Source: Christensenellales bacterium (GTDB taxonomy: Bacteria; Bacillota; Clostridia; Christensenellales; JBMNTT01). Taken from it: a stretch of DNA of 64,000 bases. The translations under genes were made by a program, and so were the position numbers. This document shows positions 15,428 to 17,503 of this stretch, piece by piece (position 1 is the first letter of the stretch; the number at the start of each line of letters is the position of its first letter). The notes beneath the pieces were generated by a model. The model saw nothing but the letters and a program-made list of their open reading frames with translations, did not search any database and was not told where the DNA came from. Where the stretch lies: positions 28,580 through 92,579 of the forward strand of contig JBMNTT010000001.1 of assembly GCA_050945875.1 (NCBI GenBank). Reading direction: 5' to 3'.

Positions 15428-17503
15428 TCACTCCACGACCTGGGGCACCAGCAGGTACCCCTCCCGCCGCTGGGGCGCGTTTGCCAGCAGCGCCTCGCGG
15501 TCCATCCCGGGCCGGGCCTTATCCTCGCGCAGCACGTTCTGAAGGGGCGCCGCATAGACGGTCTCGGGCACCCCAGCGGTGTCGATTTGCGCCAGCTCGT
15601 CGGCGAAGGCGATGATGCCCCGCAGCTGCCCGGTCAACCGGTCCCGATCGGCGGGATCGATGCGCAGACGCGACAGGGCCGCCACCCGATCCAGGTCCAG
15701 GCGCGGGCGCTCGGGCCGCTGGGCCGGGGTCCGGGCAGCCGGCGCGCCCCCCGTTAAGCCCAGGGCGGCGAGCTGCTCGGCGTCCACCGGGCCAGGCGCG
15801 TCGGTCATCAGGCAGGCGGCCTCCTTGTTTTTGGGGAAGGCGATGACCTCCCGCAGGGATTCGGCCTGCAGCAGCTGCATTGCCAGCCGATCCAGGCCGA
15901 AGGCGAAGCCGCCGTGGGGCGGGGTGCCGTACTGGAAGGCGTTGACCATGAACCCAAAGCGCTCTTGAATCTGCTCCTCGTCGAAACCCAGGGCCTGGAA
16001 CATCGCCCGCTGCACCTGCTGGTCGTGGATGCGGATGCTGCCGCTGCCCAGCTCGACGCCGTTGAGCACCACGTCGAAGGCCTGGGCCCGCACCCGCGCC
16101 GGGTCGCTGAGCAGATAGGGCACATCCTCGGGGTAGGGCATGGTAAAGGGATGGTGGGTGGCCAAGAAGCGGCCCTCGCTCTGGCTCCACTCGAACTGAG
16201 GAAAGTCAGTGACAAGGACAAAGCGGAACTCCCCGCCCCGCCGCAGCCCCAGCAGCTCCGCCAGGTCCAGGCGCAGGCCGCCCAGGGTACGGAGGACCAC
16301 CTCCTGCTGGTCGGCGCAGAAGAGGATGAAATCCCCGGGCCGCCCGTCCACCGCTCTCATCAGCGCGTCCCACTGCGGCGGGGTGAAATACTTGGTCAGG
16401 ATGGAGTAGGGCTCCCCATCCTCCCGGATGGCGATCCAGGCCATGCCCTTGGCGCCGTAACCCAGGGCCTTGTCGGTCAGCGCCTCGATGACGCCGCGGG
16501 AGAAGCCCGCGCAGCCCTTGGCGTTGATGGCCCGCACCCTGCCGCCCTGCTCGACGGCCCGGCGGAACACCGAGAAGGCGCAATCCGCCATCAGCTCGGT
16601 CAGCTCGACGATGGGCAGCCCGAAGCGCAGGTCGGGCTTGTCACTGCCGTAGCGATCCATGGCCTCGCGCCAGGTCAGCCGGGGAAAGGGCTCGGCGATG
16701 GACCGGCCCATCATGCGCGCGAACAGATGCTTGAACAGGGCCTCCAGGTGGGTCAAAATATCCTCCTGGTCCACGAAGGACAGCTCCATGTCCACCTGGG
16801 TGAACTCGGGCTGGCGGTCGGCGCGCAGGTCCTCATCCCGGAAGCAGCGGGCAATCTGATAGTACCGGTCGACGCCGCCCACCATCAGCAGCTGCTTGAA
16901 GATCTGCGGGGACTGGGGCAGGGCGTAGAACGCCCCGGGGCGCGCCCGGCTGGGCACCAGATAATCCCGCGCGCCCTCGGGGGTAGACTTGGTCAGCATG
17001 GGGGTCTCCACCTCCAGGAAACCCGCCCGGTCGAGATAATCGCGCGCTTCCCGCGCCAGCTGGGCCCGAAAGCGCAGGTTGCGCTGCATCTGGGGCCGGC
17101 GCAGGTCCAAAAAGCGGTATTTGAGCCGCAGCTCCTCGCGCACGCCGCCGGCCTCCTCCAGGGGAAAGGGCAGTCTGGCCGCCTGGCTGAGCAGCGCCAC
17201 CTCGGCGGCCTCCAGCTCGATGGTGCCGGTTTTCAGGCGCGGGTTGTAGGTGTCCGCATCCCGGATGCGCAGGGTCCCTGTCGCGGCGAACACCGACTCC
17301 AGCCGTACCGACTCGGCCAGGGCGAACTGGTCGGCGGGCAGATTGCCCGCGTCCACCACCACCTGCAGCTCCCCTTCCCGGTCCCGCAGGTCCAGGAAGA
17401 TGACGCCGCCCATGTCCCGCTTATTGGCGACCCACCCCATCGCCGTGATCCTCCGGCCCACATCGGCCTCGGTCAGCGCCCCGCAATAGGCTGTCCGTTT
17501 CAT
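15428..17503 (-). CDS. aspS: Aspartate--tRNA ligase (bacterial type with GAD insertion) fused in frame to a C-terminal GatC domain
   Basis: The ATG is at 17503 ([19 protein letters not shown]...). The class II motifs are [23 protein letters not shown] and [10 protein letters not shown]. The AspRS C-terminus ...[29 protein letters not shown] is followed by a linker, [17 protein letters not shown]. The linker is followed by a GatC-like ~90 aa segment running to ...LLVPQVVE and the stop at 15428. Confidence 0.85.
   Translation of the reverse strand: [691 protein letters not shown]

Follow-up and report, generated by a model that had tools for sequence, protein, structure and literature searches.

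Here we describe an aspS::gatC gene in a Christensenellales bacterium, in which an aspartyl-tRNA synthetase (AspRS) is joined in frame to subunit C (GatC) of the aspartyl/glutamyl-tRNA amidotransferase GatCAB. The gene lies on the minus strand of a 64-kb stretch of contig JBMNTT010000001.1 (the window, 64,000 nucleotides, whose numbering is used throughout), followed by gatA and gatB and preceded by a putative tRNA-Asn-responsive T-box leader. Its conservation in relatives shows that the fusion is real and under selection, and a covalently tethered transamidosome, the complex in which AspRS and GatCAB cooperate, is a plausible but unproven consequence of it. The fused gene, its parts and the two genes that follow it are these:

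15428-17503, minus strand: aspS::gatC fused open reading frame (ORF), 691 codons plus stop (start ATG 17503, stop TGA 15430-15428)
17518-17512, minus strand: Shine-Dalgarno (SD) sequence of aspS::gatC, GAGGAGG, upstream of the ATG at 17503
15752-17503, minus strand: AspRS part, residues 1-584 (OB anticodon-binding domain, class II catalytic core, GAD insertion), assigned by Pfam and NCBIfam
15701-15751, minus strand: linker, residues 585-601, 17 aa, from the alignment with 25 fused homologs
15431-15700, minus strand: GatC domain, residues 602-691, full length (TIGR00135, PF02686)
13962-15413, minus strand: gatA, 483 aa, full-length Pfam Amidase match (E 1.5e-153), own SD GAGGAGG at 15427-15421
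12548-13969, minus strand: gatB, 473 aa, full length, Pfam GatB_N (E 2e-121) and GatB_Yqey

The first part of the protein carries the Pfam domains tRNA_anti-codon (PF01336, residues 20-101), tRNA-synt_2 (PF00152, residues 123-560; E 7e-120, profile positions 2-308 of 308) and GAD (PF02938, residues 313-407), and scores 729 bits against the NCBIfam model aspS_bact (TIGR00459, cutoff 374) and 788 bits against NF001750 (cutoff 443). By its domains and these equivalog cutoffs it is a bacterial-type (class IIb) AspRS. The C-terminal part matches the GatC domain PF02686 at residues 616-686 with 64 bits (cutoff 23), and TIGR00135 over profile positions 5-93 of 93 with 71-76 bits (76.4 for the domain alone; cutoff 47.1), and is a full-length GatC by the curated cutoff. 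A sequence-only reading of this DNA had proposed a single 691-codon ORF running from the ATG at 17503 to the stop at 15428, in which a complete bacterial-type AspRS is followed by a 17-aa linker and then by a full-length GatC; its coordinates were reproduced, the Pfam domains and NCBIfam scores agree with the first of these parts, the alignment with fused homologs returned the same linker, and the TIGR00135 match bears out the last. We could also confirm that there is no ATG or stop between the two parts, the sole in-frame start near the junction being a GTG (codon 607) without an SD, as well as the SD of gatA, the position of its ATG (15413) 14 nt past the stop of the fusion, and the 8-nt overlap of gatB (ATG 13969) with the gatA stop (13962). 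The protein is 100% identical to P0001 (NCBI/JGI), which comes from a "Christensenellales bacterium" metagenome-assembled genome.

The fusion is widespread in the Clostridia. All of the 120 protein clusters nearest to the window protein (P0001 included) are fused, the other 119 being 67-70% identical to it, 688-695 aa long and provided with the GatC Pfam domain. Among these nearest clusters is the cultured isolate [Clostridium] leptum DSM 753, whose protein is named "Multifunctional fusion protein" in UniRef and whose locus has the order fusion, gatA, gatB. A scan of one genome per species produced 80 aspS loci, 24 of which, all in species-representative Clostridia genomes, matched the window protein over residues 1-691; they belong to Christensenellales, Oscillospiraceae, Ruminococcaceae, Feifaniaceae, Tissierellia, Ca. 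Fimadaptatus and Ca. Limiplasma. The fused loci encode AspRS and GatC in a single ORF (phmmer), with gatA and gatB next in line in all contigs that extend far enough, while in the 55 unfused aspS loci, mostly from Lachnospiraceae, no gat gene was found within 4 kb. The sequence-only reading had asked if relatives carry a stop between aspS and gatC: none was found, and the linkers of the 26 fused proteins analysed are in frame every time, 16-29 aa long (median 20) and rich in A, K, E, G, T, S and P, with no sequence conservation among them. Likewise, no conserved start codon with an SD was found at the aspS/gatC junction of the fused loci, five of which lack any in-frame start there. By contrast with the linker, the GatC residues L610, L613, N656, D661, P677 and P687 are invariant in 131 fused proteins from two phyla. 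The in-frame linkers, the absence of junction starts, the invariant GatC residues and the number of genomes together exclude an artefact or a decaying pseudo-fusion, and it is on them that our conclusion of a genuine, selected fusion rests.

The second phylum was reached through a search of the representative library with the last 251 aa of the protein, whose matches were for the most part C-terminal pieces of AspRS on short contigs and which gives no frequency estimate. It surfaced two distant fused fragments, P0149 and P0186, which led to a Desulfobacterota lineage. In the Desulfobacterota search all 120 of the best 120 matches carried a GatC domain; most were of about 700-750 aa and some entries were incomplete. 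The named members belong to Desulfobacteraceae, Desulfatiglans, "Deltaproteobacteria" and Thermodesulfobacteriota. In an 803-kb Desulfobacterota contig the order is again fusion, gatA, gatB, adjoining glnA-glnE; in this locus (L083, 201-5487) the fused operon is divergent to glnA (glutamine synthetase) and glnE (adenylyltransferase), which supply the amide donor for GatA. As a separate observation, the 363-aa cluster representative P0123 combines the N-terminus of an SdhA/FrdA flavoprotein (residues 3-123) with an AspRS C-terminus and GatC, and probably reflects misassembly of a short contig or faulty gene calling. In rough neighbor-joining trees the 26 Clostridia fused AspRS formed one clade, separate from the unfused ones, including one Christensenellaceae aspS, and the Desulfobacterota fused proteins fell outside this clade and were not its sister. 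The trees were midpoint-rooted and their sampling was biased, so that they are weak evidence; they hint that the fused AspRS is a dedicated, paralog-like enzyme and that fusion took place at least twice.

This architecture already has a catalogue entry, the NCBIfam model NF009460 (PRK12820), under the name 'bifunctional aspartyl-tRNA synthetase/aspartyl/glutamyl-tRNA amidotransferase subunit C'. The window protein aligns to it end to end (profile positions 23-718 of 723), but its 639.6 bits fall short of the 1379 required, and the plain AspRS model fits it best, with 788 bits; it thus shares the NF009460 architecture, yet lies outside this narrowly defined family. For the Desulfobacterota proteins NF009460 is the best model, with 960-1015 bits, still below the 1379 cutoff. 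They resemble the window in having gatA-gatB downstream and differ from it in their linker of about 30-45 aa, while the window protein has one of 17 aa, a Gram-positive host lineage and a T-box. Because scores of 640-1015 bits miss the NF009460 cutoff, P0001, P0288, P0301 and others are named plain 'aspartate--tRNA ligase' at NCBI. The novelty that the sequence-only reading had implied is not supported, for the fusion is present in the genomes of 24 or more Clostridia species and also throughout a large lineage of Desulfobacterota. Its hint that no AspRS-GatC fusion had been characterised holds in part: the architecture is common and catalogued (NF009460, UniRef), and no experimental study was found in our literature search for a natural AspRS-GatC fusion, which did not cover key transamidation papers, so that an earlier mention is possible. 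The fusion is, in sum, a conserved and already catalogued design in two phyla that does not appear to have been characterised experimentally.

Directly upstream of aspS::gatC we identified a promoter, a T-box and a terminator, none of which the sequence-only reading had mentioned:

17849-17876, minus strand: putative σ70-type promoter, TTGACA-16 nt-TATAAT, 12/12 consensus match
17558-17808, minus strand: T-box leader (RF00230), Rfam 108.7 bits against a gathering threshold of 93, E 4e-23, full model 1-219
17802-17796, 17788-17785 and 17766-17762, minus strand: T-box stem I, with GA motif, AGUA S-turn and AGAGA AG-bay, respectively, then stems II and III
17717-17719, minus strand: specifier codon AAC (Asn), placed by the cmscan alignment, in the 8-nt loop side GAAGAACA, the next base being the conserved purine A
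17590-17603, minus strand: T-box sequence GGGUGGUACCGCGG, antiterminator bulge, in which UGGU pairs with the tRNA 3' end
17533-17573, minus strand: intrinsic terminator, 13-bp stem and T-run, 5' arm CUUUCGUCCCA common to the antiterminator

The 12/12 promoter match is the sole one between 12000 and 19000 (mean in shuffled sequence, 0.6). The AAC specifier sits in GAAC, where it overlaps GAA (Glu), and the loop side that holds it is the 3' side of the specifier loop. The terminator in its context folds with -44.7 kcal/mol, and leaving out the 3' arm gives the alternative antiterminator fold. Judged from these motifs and folds, the leader has every part of a transcription-attenuating T-box with specifier AAC.

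The leader is shared by most of the fused loci. Its presence was decided by Rfam at an E-value threshold, since a regular-expression search missed several, and in this way a T-box was found in 22 of the 26 loci, with AAC as the specifier in all 22. The specifier context is GAAC in 20 of these T-boxes and AAAC in two; the variable base of the UGGN sequence is U in 20 and C in two, which fits a G73 discriminator, as in the tRNA-Asn of locus L014. This tRNA-Asn(GUU) gene (L014, 8905-8980, minus strand), the only tRNA-Asn gene found adjoining a fused operon, sits on the strand opposite to gatB, some 530 nt downstream of it, and has U1-A72 and G73. The U1-A72 pair is an element that bacterial GatCAB recognises (PMC2330236, PMC2811023), and its presence in the L014 tRNA would be a necessary, not a sufficient, feature for an Asn-transamidosome. 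In C. leptum DSM 753 the T-box (L002, 5537-5885) has a specifier loop identical to that of the window and scores 87.9 bits; an insertion of 128 nt around stem II brings it below the gathering threshold, and default Rfam annotation would therefore miss this leader. Another regulatory RNA was seen in the Tissierellia locus L020, at 231-360, where a cyclic di-AMP (ydaO) riboswitch (91 bits) lies upstream and is unrelated to the operon.

A characterised precedent exists in Clostridium acetobutylicum, where published accounts describe a tRNA-Asn T-box-controlled aspS-gatCAB operon with an enlarged specifier loop that also answers tRNA-Glu (PMC4574755, PMC11404447, PMC4206432), and where one of three aspS genes is T-box regulated (PMC2494555). 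The window resembles this 'NT-box' system in having a T-box before aspS and gatCAB in a Clostridium-class organism, a specifier-loop side enlarged to 8 nt (GAAGAACA) and overlapping Glu and Asn codons (GAAC), and its AspRS would likewise be dedicated to tRNA-dependent Asn synthesis beside other aspS copies. The C. acetobutylicum operon, reportedly described by Saad et al. in 2012 and 2013, has aspS and gatC, as far as is known, as separate genes. In the window, by contrast, they form one ORF, and the function of the leader is read from its sequence. With this qualification we assign the window leader to the dual-codon 'NT-box' type and predict that it responds to tRNA-Asn and perhaps to tRNA-Glu as well.

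How the two halves of the protein may be arranged was addressed with an AlphaFold2 (AF2) single-chain model built with a 131-sequence alignment. Most of the AspRS body has a predicted local distance difference test score (pLDDT) above 90, while linker residues 585-600 are below 50, which supports the linker as a flexible, disordered tether. The GatC part is partly ordered, with pLDDT 35-79 and two helices at 70-79; partial uncertainty is expected here, because this subunit folds onto its partners. In Foldseek comparisons the target-normalised TM score was 0.90 to the Thermus thermophilus AspRS and 0.87-0.90 to the Pseudomonas aeruginosa non-discriminating AspRS (ND-AspRS), and no solved chain covering both the AspRS and the GatC parts was found among the Foldseek and structure matches. 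Some published observations bear on such an arrangement. GatC is required for GatA folding and for GatB binding (PMC2330236). The Mycobacterium tuberculosis transamidosome has been reconstituted with a C-terminally tagged AspRS and an N-terminally tagged GatC (PMC8406222), and since these tagged proteins still assemble, the termini joined in the fusion tolerate extension. Without tRNA, no AspRS-GatCAB complex forms in that organism (PMC8406222), and bacterial-type transamidosomes, those with a GAD-containing AspRS, have been described as dynamic (PMC3367201).

Taking these data together, we consider it probable that the locus is a three-gene, four-function operon for tRNA-dependent Asn formation, composed of the promoter, the Asn T-box, aspS::gatC, gatA and gatB, in which a dedicated ND-AspRS is tethered to GatAB. 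Uncharged tRNA-Asn would pair with the AAC specifier and the UGGU bulge and stabilise the antiterminator, switching the operon on, and the overlapping GAA may let tRNA-Glu contribute too, by analogy with C. acetobutylicum. Readthrough of the leader would then yield a single mRNA for an AspRS to which a full-length GatC is attached through a flexible segment of some 17 aa, and for GatA and GatB. The AspRS part would act as a dedicated non-discriminating enzyme making Asp-tRNA-Asn. Because GatA needs GatC for its folding and for GatB binding, every AspRS subunit would nucleate one GatAB on its own C-terminus and, because AspRS is a dimer, the resulting particle would be (AspRS-GatC)2·GatA2·GatB2. 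The mischarged Asp-tRNA-Asn would be passed to the amidotransferase, with tRNA no longer needed to hold the enzymes together. We are more tentative about the further proposal, which may well prove wrong, that the fused polypeptide (77 kDa) stays intact as a constitutive, tRNA-independent transamidosome, arisen at least twice (Clostridia, Desulfobacterota) and offsetting the loose, tRNA-dependent association of AspRS with GatCAB. The sequence-only reading had proposed a possible 'hard-wired transamidosome', and here its idea and its implied novelty part ways: with a genuine fusion that selection has conserved next to gatA-gatB, the locus is most naturally read as encoding a tethered assembly of AspRS and GatCAB, while the novelty is not supported.

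The particle proposed here has counterparts among known transamidosomes. That of P. aeruginosa, whose structure (PDB 4WJ3) Suzuki et al. reportedly described in 2015, is said to contain an AspRS dimer, two GatCAB and two tRNA-Asn, the stoichiometry that a fused dimer would enforce. Its AspRS is, like that of the window, bacterial-type and GAD-containing (47% identity, 569 bits); the P. aeruginosa proteins, however, are separate and held by tRNA-Asn, whereas the link in the window would be covalent and tRNA-independent. The T. thermophilus transamidosome (PDB 3KFU), attributed to Blaise et al. in 2010, is said to be a stable ribonucleoprotein coupling ND-AspRS and GatCAB. It differs in its archaeal-type AspRS2 without a GAD domain (1n9w/3kfu, 135 bits against the window) and in its non-covalent association. 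Fusions involving GatC are known from Mycobacterium smegmatis, where GatC-GatA fusion mutants that have lost a stop codon are viable and show raised mistranslation (PMC7541841); none of the roughly 500 gatCAB loci surveyed carried a natural GatC-GatA fusion (PMC7541841). Loss of a stop codon joins GatC to a neighbouring gene product in both cases, but the M. smegmatis fusion is a laboratory one at the GatC C-terminus, while that of the window is at the GatC N-terminus, natural and conserved. Finally, the Deinococcus radiodurans glutaminyl-tRNA synthetase (GlnRS) has a C-terminal YqeY/GatB-like domain (PMC1865053). It is thus another aminoacyl-tRNA synthetase with a C-terminal module from the amidotransferase machinery, although there the module serves a direct-pathway enzyme as its tRNA-binding domain and is not a subunit recruiting an active amidotransferase.

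Other explanations of the fused ORF have to be set against a lasting tether. An assembly or base-call error removing a stop or a frameshift between aspS and gatC could be suspected in a window that comes from a metagenome-assembled genome; it has next to no probability, given that the isolate C. leptum DSM 753, 24 further species genomes and more than 200 protein clusters of independent assemblies are also fused, with linkers that vary in length and always keep the frame, and we rejected it on these comparative data. A separate GatC could alternatively arise if translation also started within the ORF, as it might at GTG codon 607, in which case the fusion would be a tolerated by-product of a lost stop; the window and eight homologs do have an in-frame GTG five codons after the beginning of the GatC domain. 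This GTG, however, lacks an SD in the window and in seven of the eight homologs, only L004 having a weak 4-nt GGAG; a start there would drop conserved N-terminal GatC residues, and in five fused loci the junction region is devoid of in-frame ATG, GTG and TTG codons. With no conserved start and SD at the junction, independent GatC by this route was rejected as very improbable. We give somewhat more room, while still thinking it unlikely, to a fusion that serves only to ensure equimolar, co-localised production of GatC, after which the linker would be cut and free AspRS and GatCAB would meet transiently via tRNA. The disorder of the linker (pLDDT <50) and its hydrophilic character, K/R-rich in many homologs and so accessible to proteases, would suit such a device, as would the dynamic nature ascribed to bacterial-type transamidosomes (PMC3367201). 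On the other hand, no cleavage motif is conserved in the linker, whose sequence is unconserved throughout; the loss of a stop codon is moreover unnecessary for stoichiometry, because the 8-nt gatA/gatB overlap already gives translational coupling, and the fusion has been kept in two phyla.

Some observations weigh against the proposed Asn operon or leave room for doubt about a non-discriminating AspRS. Bernard et al. in 2006 reportedly linked His31 and Gly82/83 of the P. aeruginosa ND-AspRS to tRNA-Asn recognition. At residue 31 of the fusion (codon 17413-17411), which we take to be the equivalent of this His31, the window has Met, and it has Asp where the P. aeruginosa enzyme has Gly, while the Escherichia coli discriminating enzyme (D-AspRS) has Leu and Lys at these positions. 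Position 31 is Met in 26 of 26 Clostridia fused proteins, His in 10 of 10 Desulfobacterota ones, and variable (K, L, H or T) in the unfused AspRS, a constancy within each fused lineage that speaks for a dedicated paralog. Both lineages also keep Thr85 without exception, with a gap there in most unfused proteins, and the two residues may be specificity determinants for tRNA-Asn. In addition, four of the 26 fused operons (L010, L012, L018 and L021; upstream sequence of about 3300-4000) had no T-box detectable, also at a relaxed E-value; as L027, the sister of L012, has one, the regulation would have been lost or replaced in some lineages. Nearly all Firmicutes, moreover, lack GlnRS (PMC2494555), so that, if the fusion held the sole GatC, Gln-tRNA-Gln would awkwardly depend on an AspRS-tethered enzyme under Asn control. 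There is also a housekeeping explanation, in which the fusion carries the sole, discriminating AspRS of the cell and its GatC serves a GatCAB working mainly for Gln-tRNA-Gln: the need for GatCAB to make Gln in organisms without GlnRS (PMC2494555), the mismatch with the ND signature residues and the GAA (Glu) included in the GAAC specifier would all be accommodated. We nevertheless find it improbable. AAC is kept in 22 of 22 T-boxes while the preceding G is not (AAAC in two), a sole AspRS under tRNA-Asn control would be odd, the separate clade of fused AspRS with respect to the unfused ones of related taxa suggests an extra dedicated copy, and C. acetobutylicum, with one of its three aspS genes T-box regulated, offers a precedent for one. 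The genetic context, with an Asn-specific T-box, a gatCAB operon and a synthetase fused to GatC, supports the AspRS part as a candidate ND-AspRS.

The 64-kb window was also inspected for related and neighbouring genes. No asnS, asnA/asnB, glnS, gltX, second aspS or free gatC was found in it. The gene 3' of gatB (11708-12532, minus strand) encodes a protein without a Pfam match, in which a lipoprotein-like signal (…LTLALMLTACSG) and a repeat region rich in Pro, Thr, Ala and Glu can be recognised; the interval separating it from gatB showed no terminator. Further along, a tRNA-Val(GAC) gene lies at 11365-11441 (plus strand) and a RACo-type corrinoid activation protein (Fer2, Raco_middle, RACo_C_ter) is encoded at 9461-11242 (minus strand); together with a protein containing a homocysteine S-methyltransferase domain (1439-2776, plus strand), the latter would suggest corrinoid-dependent methyl transfer. 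At the other end of the window, a 964-aa protein (61047-63941, minus strand) with AMP-binding, PP-binding and NAD_binding_4 domains (adenylation, peptidyl carrier protein and reductase, A-PCP-R) resembles, in this domain order, a carboxylic-acid reductase or a terminal reductase of the non-ribosomal peptide synthetase type, and a response regulator (57685-59190, minus strand) with receiver, DUF3369 and HD-GYP-type HD_5 domains is probably a cyclic di-GMP phosphodiesterase.

Transamidosomes are thought to guard the genetic code by passing the mischarged Asp-tRNA-Asn straight to the amidotransferase, and the importance in vivo of the common bacterial-type complex is debated because that complex is dynamic and tRNA-dependent. 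Since genomes with the fusion carry an enzyme named plain 'aspartate--tRNA ligase' by NCBI, name-based surveys would score them as lacking gatC. A covalent AspRS-GatC link kept across many gut Clostridia, and probably acquired independently in relatives of sulfate reducers, is evolutionary evidence that the proximity of both enzymes is selected. If the tethered assembly is as proposed here, it would provide a naturally stabilised bacterial transamidosome for structures, kinetics and tests of channelling and fidelity, with a culturable host in C. leptum DSM 753.

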